A stretch of DNA of 64,000 bases from Patescibacteria group bacterium. GTDB taxonomy: Bacteria; Patescibacteriota; Patescibacteriia; Magasanikbacterales; GWA2-37-8. Within the stretch, counting starts at the first letter, position 1. Every line of letters starts with the position of its first letter. Below, piece after piece: positions 12,545-63,890 of this stretch. The stretch is from positions 142,337-206,336 of the forward strand of contig JAKLGL010000002.1 of NCBI GenBank assembly GCA_022710645.1, in the 5' to 3' direction. Below the pieces are notes generated by a model. That model had not been told where the DNA came from. It made no database searches and saw nothing but the letters and a program-made list of their open reading frames with translations. Both the position numbers and the translations under genes were made by a program.

Positions 12545-12656
12545 GTTCAGGCGCTGGCCTACTTTTGCCTTTAGGGCTATCATCGGCGCCGAAGAGCTTA
12601 ACTGCCGAGTTCGGGATGGGATCGGGTGTGACCCCTTCGCTTAAAGCACCTGAACT
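12545..12656 (-). rRNA. rrf: 5S rRNA
   Basis: The reverse complement reads ...GGTGCTTTAAGCGAAGGGGTCACACCCGATCCCATCCCGAACTCGGCAGTTAAGCTCTTCGGCGCCGATGATAGCCC..., containing the conserved 5S CCCGAAC motif. Ends are approximate. Confidence 0.85.
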
Positions 12657-12694
12657 CTACACTTAAAATTTAAAAGAATATTTTGGGACAAGAA

Positions 12695-15625
<2,931 letters not shown>

Positions 15626-17074: not shown

Positions 17075-17150
17075 AAAAAGAACAGTAGTGGGGATGGAGA
17101 CCCGCCCGCCTCGGCTACGCCGAAGGCGTGTCGGGCGGGGACTCGAGCTC
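17075..17150 (-). terminator. GC-rich hairpin plus T-run after tRNA-Leu(TAG); it contains a 13-nt copy of the tRNA 3' end
   Basis: CCCGCCCGACACGCCTTCGGCGTAGCCGAGGCGGGCGGG then TCTCCATCCCCA then CTACTGTTCTTTTTTATTT. Confidence 0.5.
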
Positions 17151-17159
17151 CGAAACAAG

Positions 17160-17241
17160 TGGGGATGGAGAGACTCGAACTCTCACGGATTGCTCCACGT
17201 GCTCCTAAGGCACGCGTGTATACCAATTTCACCACATCCCC
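17160..17241 (-). tRNA. tRNA-Leu, anticodon TAG
   Basis: GGGGATGTGGTGAAATTGGTATACACGCGTGCCTTAGGAGCACGTGGAGCAATCCGTGAGAGTTCGAGTCTCTCCATCCCCA, with the long variable arm expected of tRNA-Leu. Confidence 0.85.
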
Positions 17242-21961: not shown

Positions 21962-21969
21962 CTAATCGA

Positions 21970-22006
21970 GTTAAAAGTTTATAAAGTTATAAAGTTTATA
22001 AAGTTG
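21970..22006. promoter_or_regulatory. Tandem TATAAAGTT repeats, third locus
   Basis: GTTAAAAGTTTATAAAGTTATAAAGTTTATAAAGTTG. Confidence 0.4.
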
Positions 22007-22035
22007 TGGGAAGGGGTTGAATATTTTAAAAAATC

Positions 22036-22044
22036 TGTTATAAT
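22036..22044 (+). promoter_or_regulatory. Extended -10 element TGTTATAAT
   Basis: TGnTATAAT lies about 35 nt upstream of the small basic ORF. Confidence 0.4.
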
Positions 22045-22078: not shown

Positions 22079-22195
22079 ATGAATAGCGCTTATCGTGCTC
22101 GCATAAGACATTGCAAAAAGAACACCAAAAAAGGCAAAATTTTAAGAAACAAAACCAAAATTTTGCGTAAACGTGTCAGTAAAATTGCAATATAA
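22079..22195 (+). CDS. Unannotated 38-aa highly basic peptide MNSAYRARIRHCKKNTKKGKILRNKTKILRKRVSKIAI, ribosomal-protein-like
   Basis: ATG at 22079, stop TAA at 22193-22195, preceded by an extended -10 element. It is below the ORF-track length cutoff. Confidence 0.35.
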   Translation: MNSAYRARIRHCKKNTKKGKILRNKTKILRKRVSKIAI

Positions 22196-22228: not shown

Positions 22229-22301
22229 GGTGTCCTTGGTATAACGGTTATTACGTCGGTTTGTGGTACCGACAAAACGGGTTCGACTCCCGTAGGACAC
22301 C
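22229..22301 (+). tRNA. tRNA-His, anticodon GTG, with an encoded G-1
   Basis: G-GTGTCCTTGGTATAACGGTTATTACGTCGGTTTGTGGTACCGACAAAACGGGTTCGACTCCCGTAGGACAC-C. Confidence 0.85.
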
Positions 22302-22313
22302 CTAATCAACAAA

Positions 22314-22343
22314 AATACTCCTATTTATAGGGGTATTTTTGTT
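22314..22343 (+). terminator. Terminator after tRNA-His
   Basis: ATACTCCTAT-ttat-AGGGGTAT followed by TTTTTGTTG. Confidence 0.55.
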
Positions 22344-22461
22344 GACAGCGTTCTTAAGGGAGTCGAACAGGGAAAGGGAGAAAACGGGAGTTTTCTCTTG
22401 ATGAGGAAAGGTATTGGAAAACCCGAAGGTTTTCCAAAGAGGAGGCCAAAGGCCGACGACG

Positions 22462-22548
22462 TTCGACTCCCGTAGGACATCCATCAACAACAGAAGCCCC
22501 ATGGAGGAGCGAACCGACTAATGTCGGTGAGCGACGTTCGACTCCCTA
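22462..22548 (+). repeat. Two partial copies of the tRNA-His T-arm and acceptor 3' strand, like att remnants
   Basis: GTTCGACTCCCGTAGGACATCC at about 22462-22483 and GTTCGACTCCCTAGGACAC at about 22528-22547; the genuine tRNA 3' end is GGTTCGACTCCCGTAGGACACC. Confidence 0.6.
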
Positions 22549-22609
22549 GGACACTTTTAAAAATTTTACATACTTTACATTTTCCCCTCTTTCACACTAT
22601 ACTTACTTT

Positions 22610-23725: not shown

Positions 23726-24136
23726 TTATTCCCATCTTCTAAACGGCGCACCTTCCAATAATACGACTTTAAAAACAAACAATGTTATAGAATAAGACAA
23801 CAAAATTATAATCAAACCTATCACAGCCGCGGTCAAAATACTTTTTGCTTTTTCTATATTACCTTCATCTCCACCCGCGGTCATCCATAGAAATCCGGCA
23901 TACAGAGCCAAAAGTAAAAATACGAAACCGAGCATTCCGAGCGCATATCTGATTATCAAAAAAATTCCATCTCGCGGGTCTACCGGCTCGTCAAAACCGG
24001 CTCCTTTTTCACCGGCTGCAGCTTGTAATTGTTTATCTATCTCATTGGCAGCATCGGTGTTTTGAGCCAAACAAAAACTCGTATTTCCCAACAATAAAAT
24101 TCCGAACAGAAAAGTCAAAAATATTTTTTTGAACAT
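23726..24136 (-). CDS. VirB2/TrbC-like pilin-family protein, array member 1
   Basis: Signal peptide, then LALYAGFLWMTAGGDEGNIEKAKSILTAAVIGLIIILLSYSITLFV. Confidence 0.65.
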   Translation of the reverse strand: MFKKIFLTFLFGILLLGNTSFCLAQNTDAANEIDKQLQAAAGEKGAGFDEPVDPRDGIFLIIRYALGMLGFVFLLLALYAGFLWMTAGGDEGNIEKAKSILTAAVIGLIIILLSYSITLFVFKVVLLEGAPFRRWE

Positions 24137-24155
24137 ATTTTAAAAAATTAAAAAA

Positions 24156-24791
24156 TTAATCCGGAACGATTCCTTTGTATTCATCACATCTGAAATCATA
24201 ATCATTTTGCGCTTTAGCGCAAGTATTAGTAAACCAAGCGCCGCTAACCCCCTGACAATTTTGTTGTCCTTGATTTTCATAACAATCTCCGCAAGGCACT
24301 TCGTAAGCCGCAGCTCCGACTCCGATTTTTTTGGTACATCCTTGAACGGCGACAAAACAACAACCACTATACTGACTGGGGCCTACAGGTTGTAGTTCTC
24401 CGTACGGTTCGGGTTTTGTTGTACCGGCGACAAAATACAATATCAAAGCGGTAATACTGTAAGAAAGCATGACTATGACCAAACCGATTACGGCCGATGA
24501 CAAAATAGATTTTGCTTTTTCTATATTACCTTCATCTCCACCCGCGGTCATCCATAGAAATCCGGCATACAAAGTTAACAGCAGAAAAATGATTCCGGTA
24601 AAACCCAAAACTCCGTTGATATATCTGCCTATTGTTTCAGCCAAAGATGTTTCCGTCACGCCCGAAGTAGAAATTCCTCCTTGCTTGGCGATATTTTCGG
24701 CCGTACCCAAACCGATATCCGGTTGCGCGGCAACCGAACCGGCCAAACAAAAAAATGTTATCAACGAAAAAACAAAAAATCTTTTAAACAT
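24156..24791 (-). CDS. VirB2/TrbC-like pilin-family protein with a 10-Cys C-terminal tail, member 2
   Basis: Core LTLYAGFLWMTAGGDEGNIEKAKSILSSAVIGLVIVMLSYSIT; tail ...SGCCFVAVQGCTKK...CGDCYENQGQQNCQG...CAKAQNDYDFRCDEYKG. Confidence 0.65.
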   Translation of the reverse strand: MFKRFFVFSLITFFCLAGSVAAQPDIGLGTAENIAKQGGISTSGVTETSLAETIGRYINGVLGFTGIIFLLLTLYAGFLWMTAGGDEGNIEKAKSILSSAVIGLVIVMLSYSITALILYFVAGTTKPEPYGELQPVGPSQYSGCCFVAVQGCTKKIGVGAAAYEVPCGDCYENQGQQNCQGVSGAWFTNTCAKAQNDYDFRCDEYKGIVPD

Positions 24792-24796
24792 AAGAA

Positions 24797-25186
24797 TTAA
24801 TTACCCAAAGAAGTCGGCGGAGCCGACGCTTGGCGCGTTAAATTCAAAACCATAGCGGTAATTCCGTAAGCCATAAAAATTATTATCAAGCCTATAGTAG
24901 CGGCCGTAATTATTTCTTTGGCTTTTTCTATTTTACCTTCATCTCCTCCGGCAGTTAACCATAAGAAACCGGCATAGAAAGTTAATGCAAAAAAGATAAC
25001 CCCCAAAAATCCCAATACGGCTTTGATATATCCGCCAATAGTTTGAGACAAGGAGTATTCGGTAACATCGGTAGAATAACCGGATTTTTCGGCAATATTT
25101 TGCAAAGGATCTTGAGCTAAACAAAAAACTTTCGGGATAAACACCGCACCGAATAACAAACAAATTATAAAAATCTTTTTAAACAT
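24797..25186 (-). CDS. VirB2/TrbC-like pilin-family protein, member 3
   Basis: LTFYAGFLWLTAGGDEGKIEKAKEIITAATIGLIIIFMAYGIT. Confidence 0.65.
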   Translation of the reverse strand: MFKKIFIICLLFGAVFIPKVFCLAQDPLQNIAEKSGYSTDVTEYSLSQTIGGYIKAVLGFLGVIFFALTFYAGFLWLTAGGDEGKIEKAKEIITAATIGLIIIFMAYGITAMVLNLTRQASAPPTSLGN

Positions 25187-25189
25187 ATT

Positions 25190-25558
25190 TTATTGAACTT
25201 TACCCAAAACAAACATTGTTATCGAATAGGCACTCAAGGTAACAGCCAAACCGACAACACACCAAAAAATAATAGTTTTGGCTTTTTCTATTTTTCCTTC
25301 ATCGCCTGACGATATCAACCACAAAACACCGGCGTAAATCATAAAAATAAAGAATAAAGTATTTACCAAAAACATCGCGCCTTTGATAATATTTGATGTC
25401 GAAGCATCAAAACCGGAAAAACTAAGTTTAGTCGCAAAATCATCCATTTTTTCTTTTGAATCTTGAAATGCCGGCGAAGCGGTTTGCGCGTTAACAAAAG
25501 AATAAAATAAACCGGAAAATAAAAATGTAATAATAAAAATGATGATTGTTTTTTTCAT
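25190..25558 (-). CDS. VirB2/TrbC-like pilin-family protein, member 4
   Basis: MIYAGVLWLISSGDEGKIEKAKTIIFWCVVGLAVTLSAYSIT. Confidence 0.65.
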   Translation of the reverse strand: MKKTIIIFIITFLFSGLFYSFVNAQTASPAFQDSKEKMDDFATKLSFSGFDASTSNIIKGAMFLVNTLFFIFMIYAGVLWLISSGDEGKIEKAKTIIFWCVVGLAVTLSAYSITMFVLGKVQ

Positions 25559-25560
25559 AT

Positions 25561-26055
25561 TTAATCATTAACACAACAAGCAAATTCCGTACTTGGATCA
25601 CAACCGGCCAAAGAAGCGTTACCTGTGCTTCCACCGGCTTCCACACATTCGTTTAAACCTATTTCATTATTGGTAAAACAACTGCAAGTTTGTTTATTTG
25701 AAGCGCTACCCAATTTACTTCCCACAAAATAAGTTATGGTATAAGCGGACAAAACAATGGCCAAACCTATCACTGCGGCCGTAATTATTTCTTTGGCTTT
25801 TTCTATTTTTCCTTCATCACCGCTGGCAGTCATCCATAAAACCCCGGCATAAATCGTCAAAACCAAAAATATTGTTCCGAGCATCCCCAAAATAGATGCG
25901 ATCATAGACCCTATTTTACTCTCCAAAGGAGCCTGATTTATTCCCGCTTTACCGGCTACATTAGTCAAACCAGATCCGCCCAAATCTTGAGCCGAAACCG
26001 CGGCAATACCAAAAACAAAAACCGTTGCTAAAAGAAAAATAAAAATTTTTTTCAT
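25561..26055 (-). CDS. VirB2/TrbC-like pilin-family protein with a Cys-rich tail, member 5
   Basis: LTIYAGVLWMTASGDEGKIEKAKEIITAAVIGLAIVLSAYTIT; tail NKQTCSCFTNNEIGLNECVEAGG...GCDPSTEFACCVND. Confidence 0.65.
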   Translation of the reverse strand: MKKIFIFLLATVFVFGIAAVSAQDLGGSGLTNVAGKAGINQAPLESKIGSMIASILGMLGTIFLVLTIYAGVLWMTASGDEGKIEKAKEIITAAVIGLAIVLSAYTITYFVGSKLGSASNKQTCSCFTNNEIGLNECVEAGGSTGNASLAGCDPSTEFACCVND

Positions 26056-26115
26056 AAATGAGTGAATAAAATAGAAATGAGTTTATAACTCTTGTGAAAC
26101 AGTGATTATAAAATT

Positions 26116-26649
26116 TTAATTTGTTTTTTGAGCTTTGACTCTGCAACATTGGATATTAGCACCGCCCGGACAAAGATTTTTTTCATAATCTCCTTTGATA
26201 TTATTATAGACACAATCGCTGTTTATATCCTGACAAGAGGCGTAACCGTAAGTTTCATCGGCTATACATTTATTTTCCACTACTGTCGGAACAGAAGATA
26301 AAATATTACCAAAAACAAAATTTGTTATCGCATAAGCCGAAACGGAAATAATCAAACCAGCAACCGCGGCAAAAATTATTTTTTTTGCTTTTTCCACTTG
26401 ACTATCGTTGCCGCCGGCGGTCATCCATAAAAATCCGGAATAAACCAATAATAAGAAAAATATTATCCCTAGATAAAGTGATACTTGTCCTAAAACCAAA
26501 CCTACTGCACTCGGCAAGCTGCCGGTTTTGGAAACTTCCGTTTCACTCAACCCGGATATTTTACCGGCTGTATCCAACCCTCCTTGAGCCCACACCACAG
26601 ACACACTCATAATACCGGTTAAAATAATCAAAAAAAATATTTTTCGCAT
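26116..26649 (-). CDS. VirB2/TrbC-like pilin-family protein with a Cys-rich tail, member 6
   Basis: LLVYSGFLWMTAGGNDSQVEKAKKIIFAAVAGLIISVSAYAIT; tail NKCIADETYGYASCQDINSDCVYNN...CPGGANIQCCRVKAQKTN. Confidence 0.65.
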   Translation of the reverse strand: MRKIFFLIILTGIMSVSVVWAQGGLDTAGKISGLSETEVSKTGSLPSAVGLVLGQVSLYLGIIFFLLLVYSGFLWMTAGGNDSQVEKAKKIIFAAVAGLIISVSAYAITNFVFGNILSSVPTVVENKCIADETYGYASCQDINSDCVYNNIKGDYEKNLCPGGANIQCCRVKAQKTN

Positions 26650-26658
26650 AGTTATTCT

Positions 26659-27063
26659 TTAGGGAGATGAAGTTAAACGACTAAAAATAAATTCGGAAAT
26701 TCCATAAGCCAAAACCACTATCACAATACCATAAATAGCGCTTTCAATAATATCTTTAGCTTTGTCTACTTCTCCGGAATTATCTCGAGCTTTAATCCAG
26801 GTAAAACCGGCATAAATTATCAAAACCATCAAAACTATACCGACAAAACCCAAAACCAATCTTACCAACCCTTGAATAATATCCAAAGGTTCTTGATTGG
26901 AAATTCCTATAAGAGACAAAAGGCTATTATTATAAACTTTCTGCACTCCATATTTGGCGGCTTTTTGATCCGCTGTTTCATCGGCAAAACAAACCGATAA
27001 CGGCAAAATCAAAATCGAAAAAAGAATCGCGCCAAAAATAAATTTTTTAAAAAAAGATTTCAT
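26659..27063 (-). CDS. VirB2/TrbC-like pilin-family protein, member 7
   Basis: Start at MKSFFKKFIF; core LIIYAGFTWIKARDNSGEVDKAKDIIESAIYGIVIVVLAYGIS. Confidence 0.6.
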   Translation of the reverse strand: MKSFFKKFIFGAILFSILILPLSVCFADETADQKAAKYGVQKVYNNSLLSLIGISNQEPLDIIQGLVRLVLGFVGIVLMVLIIYAGFTWIKARDNSGEVDKAKDIIESAIYGIVIVVLAYGISEFIFSRLTSSP

Positions 27064-27150
27064 ATTGTTTTCTAACGACAATAATTTATCGCCAAAAAAC
27101 AATTTTTCAAAGGGGGTTGCGCGCGCGAACCCCCTTTGAAAAAAATGTTA

Positions 27151-27546
27151 TTACATAGTAGGATCGGTAGTTGCTGTAACCAATGAATTGATAACGAAAT
27201 TGGCCAAAGCATAGGCGGACAAAATGATCGCCAAGCCGATAATACCGGAAAAAATCCATTTTTTACCGGTTTCCACACGTCCTTCATCTCCACCGGCTGT
27301 CATCCAATAGAAACCGCCGATAAGAATTATAACCACGGCTACGATACCAAGAAGACCCATCATCACTCTGATAATGGAAGCTACTGTGGTACGAACATCT
27401 TGGGTACCCAAACCGATTTTAGCGCCATAAGAAATACCTAAATCGTCGGCTTGAATAGGTGTTTGAGCGGAAGAGGTGTTAGCCCAAAAAACCAAACCTC
27501 CAAGCATCATTGAAAAAATCACCATTGTCGAAACTAATTTTTGCAT
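27151..27546 (-). CDS. VirB2/TrbC-like pilin-family protein, member 8
   Basis: ILIGGFYWMTAGGDEGRVETGKKWIFSGIIGLAIILSAYALA. Confidence 0.6.
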   Translation of the reverse strand: MQKLVSTMVIFSMMLGGLVFWANTSSAQTPIQADDLGISYGAKIGLGTQDVRTTVASIIRVMMGLLGIVAVVIILIGGFYWMTAGGDEGRVETGKKWIFSGIIGLAIILSAYALANFVINSLVTATTDPTM

Positions 27547-27631
27547 ATTCTCACCCCCTTTCCGTTGTTAATTTCTTTTTTAAACATAACTTTATTTTAC
27601 TCCGCTTTATTCTTTATCGCAACTTTATTTA

Positions 27632-27967
27632 TTAAAATACTTGAAAAATAGTAGCGGTTATCAAATAACTGGAAAAAACAAAAATCAATCCTATCGCCGC
27701 CCAAATCATCGTTTGAGTACCGCTTTTTATCTTATCTTCATTACCCGCGGCCGTGAGCCATTGAAAACCTCCGTAAACCATCATTACCAAAGCCACACCG
27801 CCAATAATTCCGAGAACCGCTTTGATAACATAACCTATGATTTCAGCCGGACTATCCAAATTAATTTTCAAAGGATTAGTTAATTTAATAGTATTTTCAT
27901 TGGCGGCCAAAACGGCGGTTGAAAACAAAAACGATAAAGCAAATATCAATAAAAATATTTTTTTCAT
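27632..27967 (-). CDS. VirB2/TrbC-like pilin-family protein, member 9
   Basis: MMVYGGFQWLTAAGNEDKIKSGTQTMIWAAIGLIFVFSSYLIT. Confidence 0.6.
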   Translation of the reverse strand: MKKIFLLIFALSFLFSTAVLAANENTIKLTNPLKINLDSPAEIIGYVIKAVLGIIGGVALVMMVYGGFQWLTAAGNEDKIKSGTQTMIWAAIGLIFVFSSYLITATIFQVF

Positions 27968-27975
27968 AAGTTCTA

Positions 27976-28329
27976 TTAACCAAAAATATTAATAACAAAA
28001 CGAACAAAACCGTAACTAGCTCCGATAGCCACTGCACCAAACGCAGTCCAAACCAAAATAGTTCGCGCTTTTTCTATTTTACTATCATTACCGGCGGCGG
28101 TCATCCATAAAAATCCAGCATAAACCATCAAAGCCAGAGCTATAGTTCCCATAAACATTACCATAGCATTGATTCCTCTACTCATCAGATCGGAAACCCC
28201 TTGCACGTTTGAAGGATTAAGTTTTGCCGCAGCTTCCTCTTTTAAAGAGGAAGTCGTATAAGATTGAGCACAGACTTTCTGAATCGGTAACAGAATAAAA
28301 GAAAATAAAACTAAAAATATTTTTTTCAT
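27976..28329 (-). CDS. VirB2/TrbC-like pilin-family protein, member 10
   Basis: Start at MKKIFLVLFSF; core LMVYAGFLWMTAAGNDSKIEKARTILVWTAFGAVAIGASYGFV. Confidence 0.6.
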   Translation of the reverse strand: MKKIFLVLFSFILLPIQKVCAQSYTTSSLKEEAAAKLNPSNVQGVSDLMSRGINAMVMFMGTIALALMVYAGFLWMTAAGNDSKIEKARTILVWTAFGAVAIGASYGFVRFVINIFG

Positions 28330-28330
28330 A

Positions 28331-28783
28331 TTAGTTGTTTTTTGGTGTAGTAGTAGGCGTTTGTTCCAATTTGTATTCATCTTGCAATTGTAAAGAGTCT
28401 CCCAAAAATTTAACAATGGCCACTCCCGAATAAGCTATTACTATACCTATAACAGCGGCAATCATCGCATCTTTAGCTTCTTTTATTTTACCCGAATCAC
28501 CTCCGGAAATTATCATTTTGAATCCTCCGTAAACAAACACGAGTAATGCCAAAGCTCCGATAAAAGTAAACATATAAGCTCCTATATTTATCGCCAATTC
28601 GATAAATATACCGACATCGTCGCAAGCTTTATTTTCTCCAGGAGTTTTAGCCCCGCTCATCTGTTCTTGAATACATTTCGGATAAATTTTTGTCCAATTA
28701 CTCTGCGCTTGCACCCAACTCAAAGGAACAAAAAGTCCGATCATTAAAATTCCAACGATAATATTATTTTTAATTTTTTGCAT
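28331..28783 (-). CDS. VirB2/TrbC-like pilin-family protein, member 11
   Basis: Start at MQKIKNNIIVG; core LVFVYGGFKMIISGGDSGKIKEAKDAMIAAVIGIVIAYSGVAIV. Confidence 0.6.
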   Translation of the reverse strand: MQKIKNNIIVGILMIGLFVPLSWVQAQSNWTKIYPKCIQEQMSGAKTPGENKACDDVGIFIELAINIGAYMFTFIGALALLVFVYGGFKMIISGGDSGKIKEAKDAMIAAVIGIVIAYSGVAIVKFLGDSLQLQDEYKLEQTPTTTPKNN

Positions 28784-35120: not shown

Positions 35121-35160
35121 AATAAAAAATAGCTAAACAGTTAAGTTAGCTATTTTCTAG

Positions 35161-35178
35161 GTGCCCGGGGCGGGAATC
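35161..35178. repeat. Direct copy of the tRNA-Leu(TAA) 3' end: 18 bp, GTGCCCGGGGCGGGAATC
   Basis: Identical to 35347-35364, the tRNA acceptor and T-arm 3' strand. It bounds a 168-bp module at 35179-35346. Confidence 0.7.
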
Positions 35179-35346
35179 TGCTTTACCTCTCGTTTGTTTC
35201 CACAAACTCGGGCTAGCCACCGCCTCGCGATTTTATTCGCTCACAAGCTCATAAAATATCGCTCCGGCGTTCTCATCCCGACACGAGCAAAACTATTTGC
35301 TCGTTCCCCAGACAAAATAACACAGACCAAAAGGTCTGTGTTATTT
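35179..35346 (-). mobile_element. tRNA-linked non-coding module (hairpin, box1, box2) shared with the tRNA-Ala locus; a candidate miniature integrative element or tRNA-associated small RNA
   Basis: Box1 GGGATGAGAACGCCGGAGCGAT lies at 35258-35279 on the minus strand and is identical to 63770-63791. Box2 CGCGAGGCGGTGGCTAG matches 63821-63837 at 16 of 17 positions. Confidence 0.5.
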
Positions 35347-63742: not shown

Positions 63743-63890
63743 CACAGAGTCTGCCGAAGGCAGACGACAGGGATGAGAACGCCGGAGCGATGTCGAGCGA
63801 TACATACGAGTGAGCGAGACCGCGAGGCGGTGGCCAGACAAAATTTTCGGAAGAAAATTTTAGTCGCGGCCGAATCCCCTCAGGTCCACA
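63743..63890 (+). mobile_element. tRNA-linked non-coding module ending in a 19-bp copy of the tRNA-Ala 3' end; shares box1 and box2 with the tRNA-Leu(TAA) locus
   Basis: Hairpin GTCTGCC-gaa-GGCAGAC, box1 GGGATGAGAACGCCGGAGCGAT (63770-63791), box2 CGCGAGGCGGTGGCCAG (63821-63837), then GAATCCCCTCAGGTCCACA (63872-63890) against the tRNA 3' end 63724-63742. Confidence 0.55.

Follow-up and report, generated by a model that had tools for sequence, protein, structure and literature searches.

Transfer RNA (tRNA) genes are classic landing sites of mobile DNA, and to our knowledge the known systems that target them depend on a protein integrase matched to one tRNA. The closest described systems are the tRNA-targeting integrative elements (tycheposons and those of the cis-mobilizable, or CIME, type), in which a direct repeat running from the T-loop to the 3' end of the tRNA gene flanks the insert and leaves the tRNA intact, older insertions are pushed outward, and integrase-less elements occur beside integrase-bearing ones. 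The same features mark a small element, here called E, that lies behind the tRNA-His gene in a 64,000-nt stretch of DNA (the window) from a Patescibacteria group bacterium (GenBank contig JAKLGL010000002.1, positions 142,337 to 206,336). E differs from the integrative elements in its length of about 180 nt when complete with its hairpin, in having no genes, in its covarying four-helix fold, and in carrying an antisense copy of the T-arm; and while the targets of an integrase family are normally one tRNA or a small number, the scaffold of E is found with at least 32 tRNA species. It is a new family of a kind already known, the integrase-less element at a tRNA attachment (att) site, and is set apart by its conserved fold, its antisense copy of the target and its unusually broad set of tRNA targets. 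No description of it was found in the literature on Magasanikbacteria or Patescibacteria tRNA-linked elements, miniature inverted-repeat transposable elements (MITEs), serine recombinases, and HUH or hairpin integration.

The tRNA-His(GTG) gene occupies 22230-22302 of the + strand, with an encoded G-1 at 22229 (ARAGORN; Rfam tRNA, 56.7 bits). It is the target of the insertion, and the repeated stretch is its last 22 nt, comprising the T-loop, the 3' strand of the T-stem, the 3' strand of the acceptor stem, C73 and C74. An earlier note on this DNA had reported two extra copies of the tail, and both were confirmed with a repeat finder and shuffled sequences: the 3' end GTTCGACTCCCGTAGGACACCC at 22281-22302 is matched at 21 of 22 positions by copy 2, GTTCGACTCCCGTAGGACATCC, at 22461-22482, and copy 3, GTTCGACTCCC-TAGGACAC at 22536-22554, has one G missing. 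A 20-mer scan allowing up to three mismatches returned the tRNA-His end and copy 2 only (0.00 expected, 100 shuffles), the 1-nt deletion in copy 3 having hidden it from the scan. All three + strand occurrences of the exact 11-mer GTTCGACTCCC in the window are at this locus; there is one reverse-complement match at 22358, and the T-arm of tRNA-Gly(TCC), a minus-strand gene, holds another. The GC-rich, structured spacers that had been described were likewise borne out, with a GC content of 0.46-0.58 against about 0.25-0.35 in the flanks and a fold of -57.7 kcal/mol (z = -6.25) for 22350-22482. Three further features had been overlooked: an antisense tail copy at 22350-22368 able to pair with either sense copy (inverted repeats I4 and I6), the continuation of the copy 2 likeness into a hairpin relic, such that 22483-22502 resembles 22304-22324, and the identity of the second spacer, which is the 3' part of another, 5'-truncated copy of the same element. 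We give about an even chance to the locus being one complete and one truncated copy of E in tandem, E being a small non-coding insertion element; the earlier mention of miniature non-autonomous elements was near the mark.

The left end of the complete element is hairpin h1 (22306-22345, + strand), a terminator-like, A/T-flanked stem of 19 bp (TCAACAAAAATACTCCTAT / ATAGGGGTATTTTTGTTGA; inverted repeat I2, 95% complementary). It is followed at 22350-22368 (+) by the antisense copy IR-L (GTTCTTAAGGGAGTCGAAC), which is complementary to the T-loop and T-stem 3' strand of tRNA-His, its complementarity to the acceptor 3' strand having decayed. The last 11 nt of IR-L (GGGAGTCGAAC, 22358-22368) are exactly antisense to tRNA-His, and the 16-nt counterpart at a related locus, L007, is perfect. 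IR-L forms the 5' strand of a closing helix, P1, which is present in the minimum-energy fold. The conserved core spans 22369-22460 (+) and is recognized by the fold, by its recurrence in 129 copies and by an nhmmer match at 22362-22441 (E-value 1.2e-22). Within it, junction AGGGAAAGG precedes hairpin H1 (22378-22397, +; GAGAAAAC/GUUUUCUC, loop GGGA), junction UUGAUGAGGAAAGGUA precedes H2 (22414-22437, +; UUGGAAAACC/GGUUUUCCAA, loop CGAA), both hairpins being supported by covariation, and junction AGAGGA precedes H3 (22444-22454, +; GGCC AAA GGCC), after which comes GACGAC. The 3' module at 22461-22482 (+) is the sense copy of tRNA-His positions 53-74 with 21 of 22 identities; it provides the 3' strand of P1 and is of the rare form in which the T-loop is intact.

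The second element (22483-22535, +) is 5'-truncated, as judged by comparison with the first and by a homologous truncated module at locus L005. It consists of a relic of the h1 5' arm (22483-22502), GGAGGAGC, a hairpin (CCGAC TAAT GTCGG) and GAGCGAC, these last corresponding to the 3' part of the core, while the h1 3' arm, IR-L, H1 and H2 are deleted. Its 3' module, GTTCGACTCCC-TAGGACAC at 22536-22554 (+), was delimited by inverted repeat I6 and by comparison of loci; the 1-nt deletion is also present in the distal copies of L005 and L007, and when the whole region is folded this module pairs perfectly with IR-L (12 bp).

The hairpin at 22306-22345 had been taken for the terminator of tRNA-His, a reading that fails: it is a 19-bp hairpin of the inserted element and foreign to the native locus. 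It is homologous in elements at different tRNAs, e.g. Lys and Asp, and at locus L015 h1 and E lie inside a tRNA-Gly/tRNA-Met spacer whose counterpart in the window has no hairpin. For these reasons h1 is regarded as the left end of the element and IR-L as a variable segment between two constant parts, and a native terminator is ruled out. So too is a reverse-complement copy of the native terminator, made by snap-back or target-primed copying, since the hairpins are unrelated in L007 and L070.

Three further assemblies of the same organism, a Candidatus Magasanikbacteria metagenome-assembled genome (MAG), have an identical tRNA-His locus, and other relatives were found by way of the downstream glycosyltransferase gene. 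In L006 the site is empty, tRNA-His being directly joined to the terminator TAACAAAAACATCC...GGATGTTTTTGAATTTTT. L007 has tRNA-His, an unlike hairpin, a perfect 16-nt antisense copy (GGGTGTCCTACGGGAG), a core of the window type, one tail copy and an L006-type terminator; L005 has at least three tail copies ahead of an L006-type terminator, the truncated module of the window among them. A decayed unit in L008 retains its closing stem, still paired through CC/GG to UU/AA changes, and L010, L012 and L013 possess another tRNA-His sequence and empty sites. Since empty, single and multiple states occur among relatives, the tail copies are insertions, and the earlier suggestion that the duplicated tails are the footprint of insertion at the tRNA 3' end stands. 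The sites at tRNA-Gly(GCC)/tRNA-Met and tRNA-Gly(TCC) are empty in the window and occupied in L015, L032 and L023. Degenerate copies are represented by L008, L015 and the second module of the window; such decay argues against host-level selection acting on every copy. It had been reasoned beforehand that segments conserved as RNA structure in related genomes would speak against insertion scars. The arrangement varies among relatives, in keeping with insertion, but the interior structure is conserved, which tells against plain scars.

An exact 22-mer of the core (22376-22397) was found at 25 loci in about 12 species-representative genomes, with up to four copies per genome, and an independent pattern taken from another hairpin gave 93 metagenome loci. 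A search with a core profile raised this to 129 copies of E in 118 loci. In 99 of the 129 a same-strand tRNA lies less than 400 nt upstream, mostly at 32-96 nt, and 32 anticodon species are represented; the others are mostly at contig ends, behind a tRNA missed by ARAGORN, or behind another inserted module. The order of parts is constant: tRNA gene, h1, IR-L, core, sense tail copy, native downstream sequence, with a core that reads GGGAAAGG, H1, UUGCUGAGGAAAG, H2, AGAGGAG, H3, GACGA. The sense tail copy extends from the T-loop or T-stem to the discriminator and includes CCA only if the tRNA gene encodes it. E is always oriented as its tRNA, and it also occurs between tRNA genes, in one operon at L015 (tRNA-Gly/tRNA-Met) and again at L016 and L026. 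Where a genome with the 22-mer has been given a taxon name, it is Magasanikbacteria or Patescibacteria, except for several MAGs named "uncultured Gammaproteobacteria" (L019, L021, L024, L025, L028, L030, L032 and L033); the latter label is probably wrong, as their gene content and E copies match Magasanikbacteria. As far as sampled, the family is restricted to Ca. Magasanikbacteria.

E has no coding capacity. A small-peptide open reading frame (ORF) in the core was dismissed, its ATG being unique to the window and replaced by CUG elsewhere. No Rfam 15 family matches the locus or the whole window at gathering or permissive (E-value up to 10) thresholds, and what matches there are over 22303-22560 are at chance level (ylbH scores 24.5 bits, its cut-off being 50). 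A hammerhead-like reading of CUGAGGA... was ruled out, there being no GAA after helix II and no Rfam match. The tRNA-like RNAs (tmRNA, YrlA, viral 3' ends) resemble E in that the 3' end is the T-stem 3' strand, the acceptor 3' strand and the discriminator of a tRNA; E differs in lacking the T-arm hairpin, its T-loop being paired or altered, and mostly also the acceptor 5' strand. A tmRNA or YrlA tRNA-like domain is excluded by the missing T-arm hairpin. Viral origin was likewise rejected: the core 22-mer has no match among the viral contigs of IMG/VR, the two H2 matches are ordinary terminators, and the large serine recombinase (LSR) discussed below has no viral relative.

The ends of E match the neighbouring tRNA. 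Over its last 14 nt the mean identity to its own tRNA is 12.58 of 14, compared to 7.98 for tRNAs of other amino acids, and the antisense segment beyond the T-loop scores 5.70 of 8 against 4.82; neither observed mean was reached in any of 200 permutations. The match of the 3' end follows differences among orthologous tRNAs (e.g. Arg-TCG, Asn, Glu), and IR-L follows the variable T-loop positions in 131 of 144 cases. The duplicated target segment measures 13-22 nt and ends at the tRNA 3' end. Among copies of E from different tRNAs, the greatest likeness is found between isoacceptors whose tails resemble each other (Ser 90-95%, Lys 84%). A primer-binding site of the retroviral type is disfavoured, as the tail copies lack CCA unless it is gene-encoded.

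The predicted fold of 22350-22482 has the closing helix P1 around three hairpins. Of the cells in H1 and H2 together 97.1% are paired, and both sides have changed in 7 pairs (91 cells), giving a covariation score of 0.328 as opposed to 0.122 for shuffles and 0.03-0.07 for slid controls. H3 is a hairpin whose sequence is free to vary, and the single-stranded junctions GGGAAAGG, GAGGAAAG and AGAGGAG are invariant. P1 is seldom perfect: the TTCRANN of the tRNA is replaced by TGARANN in the tail copy of at least 27 of 53 elements, a change of U55C56 to GA which places tandem G.A pairs opposite IR-L, and 11 of the 53 have a mini-hairpin, frequently GCGAAGC, between the T-loop and T-stem. The intact T-loop form of the window is shared by only 2 of the 53. 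In 50 of 54 elements the tRNA-sense (+) strand is the more stable of the two, and it has 131 G.U pairs versus 32, an asymmetry that rules out a minus-strand RNA.

The most informative multiple site is an array at tRNA-Ser(GGA) (L070, 1-10747; L081, 1-10883), which runs E, 6-kb island, E, 4.4-kb island, E. Over 203 bp the first two copies of E in the array show 100% identity. At its tRNA-adjacent end the 6-kb island encodes an LSR with Resolvase, Recombinase and Zn_ribbon_recom domains, found in this position in L070/L081 only and not at the locus of the window; it further encodes a HUH rolling-circle Rep (REP_ORF2-G2P), an aminoglycoside-phosphotransferase-like protein and an M23-like peptidase, and the 4.4-kb island carries an AbiEii/AbiEi-like toxin pair. 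The simplest history is that elements inserted one after another at the tRNA end and displaced the earlier arrivals outward, a solo E being the newest. A serine recombinase island without E is present at tRNA-Gly(CCC) in L039. Just before h1 in L025, L070, L093 and L129 there is a motif (G)TTCNAA..ACATCGTC(C) followed by the end of the tRNA tail; recombinase islands that went in between the tRNA and a pre-existing E probably have this motif as their right-end att arm. The reverse complement of the ACATCGTC motif resembles GACGACGTTCGAA of the E 3' module. A relative of the Rep with an adjacent LSR, in the Rep-then-recombinase order of the 6-kb island, occurs on a 7.1-kb IMG/VR contig (L134), which ends ahead of any att region and bears no E. 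Beside the 118 loci there is no recurrent neighbour protein, and no enrichment of transposases or integrases beyond the one island type.

The reading that we favour, and hold to be about as probable as not, is that E is a non-autonomous, tRNA-specific insertion element which spreads as a folded single strand with the aid of an enzyme encoded elsewhere. The order of its parts, its same-strand site after an intact tRNA gene, the duplicated segment, the covarying fold, its polymorphism, and its tandem build-up and decay are direct observations. E would insert by recombination within or just after the segment from the T-loop to the 3' end of the tRNA gene, which would leave 13-22 nt of the tRNA on both sides. 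The tail copy would serve as the attachment sequence, tying each lineage of E to one tRNA or to isoacceptors with similar tails. The active form may be the folded tRNA-sense single strand, as a single-stranded DNA intermediate or as a transcript, with P1 closed around H1-H3 through pairing of the tail copy with IR-L; such a form would account for the covariation of IR-L with the tRNA and for the conservation of the interior in spite of decay in the flanking copies. The enzyme would act in trans, and the only candidates seen are the LSR and the HUH Rep of the tRNA-Ser islands. A selfish element is favoured over a host gene because of the identical copies within one array, the likeness between copies at isoacceptors, and the frequency of decay and truncation, and the same evidence argues against anonymous scars. 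Several points weigh on the other side. Neither an enzyme linked to E nor an excised or circular form was seen, and every copy comes from metagenome assemblies of uncultured organisms. Conservative site-specific recombination alone fails to explain how one family acquired the correct tails of 32 tRNAs, and the antisense match past the universally conserved T-loop is only modest (5.7 of 8). Part of the G.U asymmetry may stem from the richness of the + strand in G, and covariation and strand asymmetry are equally compatible with an RNA useful to the host; E in the tRNA-Gly/tRNA-Met operon of L015 must be transcribed through, which fits an RNA role too.

That the family is instead a host non-coding RNA, a "tRNA trailer RNA" co-transcribed with its tRNA and mimicking the cognate T-stem and acceptor strand by means of its closing helix and tail, we consider unlikely; the RNA might then have a role in tRNA processing, quality control, decoy binding, or protein sequestration through the purine-rich GGA-type junctions, and the agreement of its ends with its own tRNA would follow from the two acting together. 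Such an RNA would account for the covarying hairpins and invariant junctions (GGGAAAGG, GAGGAAAG, AGAGGAG), for the strand asymmetry and the constant orientation, for the location inside or between tRNA genes in L015, L016 and L026, and for the way IR-L follows single-nucleotide T-loop variants of its own tRNA; the U55C56-to-GA change with its tandem G.A pairs in P1, or the mini-hairpin, look like designed RNA motifs. A host RNA would not be expected, however, behind one of the eight tRNAs of the window and behind other tRNAs in other genomes, with empty orthologous sites; nor does it agree with tandem, truncated and end-decayed copies, with identical copies alternating with mobile islands, with a terminator-like hairpin ahead of E and no evident promoter, or with the absence of an Rfam family. 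Slightly less probable still is the view, advanced earlier in terms of tyrosine-integrase attL/attR sites, that these are plain att scars, left as partial tRNA copies when integrase-bearing islands were lost, E being a conserved tRNA-proximal end module. The part of that proposal which survives is insertion at the tRNA end. Partial tRNAs stacked beside a tRNA are familiar from integrative elements, as in the tycheposons (bioRxiv 10.1101/2020.12.28.424599); serine recombinase islands at tRNA 3' ends are bounded by partial tails (L039 at tRNA-Gly(CCC), L070 at tRNA-Ser), and in L025, L093 and L129 E is preceded by the island right-end motif with a tail. The tRNA-His locus itself has the direct repeat and the empty site, but no integrase was found in or beside its insert of about 250 nt, relatives of the L070-type LSR and Rep having been sought throughout the 64-kb window and neighbours surveyed at the 118 loci, with tyrosine integrases not screened. 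The insert is a defined, conserved and covarying unit known from more than 100 copies at 32 kinds of tRNA, and it includes an antisense T-arm copy which simple att duplication does not predict. About 100 solo copies share a sharply defined, identical architecture free of gene fragments, the L039 island has no E, the newest insertion of the L081 array is a solo E, two further modules of the window (E2 and E3, below) follow the same logic without genes, and scars would lose their covarying hairpins.

A further proposal is that insertion is guided by nucleic acid, IR-L and the 3' module pairing with the two strands of the tRNA gene so that one enzyme serves all targets, by analogy with the hairpin-foot guide DNA of IS200/IS605, with IS110 bridge RNA, or with a tRNA-like 3' tag used in reverse transcription. 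It suits the variable, target-matched segments between the constant h1 and core, one antisense and one sense and overlapping at the T-stem, the 32 targets on one conserved scaffold, and the HUH Rep in the only E-flanked island; nevertheless we think it improbable. Neighbours of the 118 loci include no recurrent Y1 transposase, DEDD recombinase or reverse transcriptase, specific antisense matching is confined to a short stretch, the lack of CCA in the tail unless encoded indicates derivation from DNA rather than from mature tRNA, and the highest likeness, being among isoacceptors, fits dependence on identity and not freely reprogrammable targeting. Slightly less doubtful is the broader idea that E is the cis part of a guided system, in which its folded single strand would offer both segments to the T-arm and 3' end of the tRNA gene, a trans enzyme, perhaps a HUH Rep or a serine recombinase, could be directed to at least 32 tRNA genes, and a change of some 15 nt would suffice to retarget it.

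Other mobile DNAs bear comparison with E, which in our favoured reading belongs among them. MITEs and REPIN-like repeats are likewise short, non-coding, multi-copy, structured and intergenic, with an end inverted repeat and a duplicated target. The end inverted repeat of E, on the other hand, differs from site to site and is target-derived or target-matched, its interior is conserved instead of its ends, its insertion is strictly site- and orientation-specific, and no autonomous parent transposon was found among the neighbours of the 118 loci. Integron attC sites and attP(+) of CTX phage share the integrated layout of hybrid site, hairpin, inverted copy, body and hybrid site; the layout of E would be that expected if a single-stranded circle with a target-mimicking stem had inserted, the tentative resemblance to attC and CTX being one of layout only. 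Folding is strand-specific in E too, and its predicted stem P1, which may be comparable to theirs, is interrupted by the tandem G.A pairs (at least 27 of 53) or by the inserted hairpin (11 of 53). Unlike attC, E lacks GTTRRRY/RYYYAAC boxes and has ends GTTCGA / TCGAAC; unlike both, it was seen with no link to an integron integrase or Xer, its central part is conserved and its target is a tRNA gene. The IS200/IS605 ends and the palindrome-associated transposable elements (PATEs) related to them, and the IS110 bridge RNA, are similar in their subterminal hairpins, strand specificity and possible target recognition by base pairing. IS200/IS605 elements, however, make no target duplication and use 4-nt guides, whereas E has a 13-22 nt target repeat plus an inverted repeat, and IS110 encodes its recombinase beside the RNA, whereas no DEDD/Ser recombinase gene recurs beside E at the 118 loci.

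What is of interest in the family is that a single gene-less, folded scaffold sits behind at least 32 tRNA genes in a reduced-genome lineage of the candidate phyla radiation (CPR), each copy with a matching tail. If mobile, E would be a compact and possibly programmable model for the way in which a tiny element recognizes and duplicates a tRNA end; if a host RNA, it would represent structured RNAs of a new, tRNA-linked class. In both cases it accounts for many "partial tRNA" fragments and assembly breaks in Patescibacteria and offers annotators a family to model.

E itself is behind one of the eight tRNAs of the window, and downstream of four of them (Leu-TAG, His, Leu-TAA and Ala-GGC) their own last 13 nt recur; a tail copy upstream was seen for none of 116 tRNAs examined. 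The E2 module follows tRNA-Ala-GGC (63744-63890) and tRNA-Leu-TAA (about 35160-35346, - strand), in each case ending in a copy of the tRNA tail. Its core is GGGATGAGAACGCCGGAGCGAT...CGCGAGGCGGTGGCYAGAC...AAAATTTTCGGAAGAAAATTTTAGTCGNGGCCGA, it recurs as a second unit in L021 and L037, and its antisense T-loop has a TC-to-GA change of the kind seen in E. E3, found after tRNA-Leu-TAG (17159-17241) at about 17087-17158 on the - strand, is a GC-rich hairpin module of about 65 nt followed by the exact 13-nt tail copy TCTCCATCCCCAC. Because several unrelated small cargos in the lineage duplicate tRNA tails, a common insertion machinery is indicated.

Two other tRNA genes among the relatives are interrupted or partly duplicated. 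In L006 (613-705) tRNA-Arg(TCT) is followed after about 55 nt by a partial tRNA-Arg 3' half, starting from the anticodon arm and resembling the tRNA-Arg of the window, which looks like a separate insertion scar with its crossover in the anticodon loop. In L094 (about 1040-1240) the 3' half of a tRNA-Asn lies about 150 nt from its 5' part and ARAGORN calls no tRNA; the gap may be a group I intron, such introns having been reported in tRNA-Asn of Patescibacteria (PMC13011429).

Directly after tRNA-Arg(TCT) of the window there is an AT-rich short tandem repeat, AAAGTTTATAAAGTTATAAAGTTTATAAAGTT, at 21963-22012, and different repeats occupy this position in L006 and L012. Between tRNA-Arg and tRNA-His lies an ORF for a very basic 38-amino acid protein, MNSAYRARIRHCKKNTKKGKILRNKTKILRKRVSKIAI (22079-22195, + strand). 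This ORF has a good promoter-like site upstream (22017-22044) and no match in Pfam, and it is conserved in L006, L007, L008 and L012. Elsewhere in the window are 23S and 5S rRNA genes (12546-15621, - strand) without an adjoining 16S gene and, after a glycosyltransferase gene, a run of about ten T4SS_pilin-family genes (23726-28416); both the rRNA layout and the pilin run are usual in CPR genomes.

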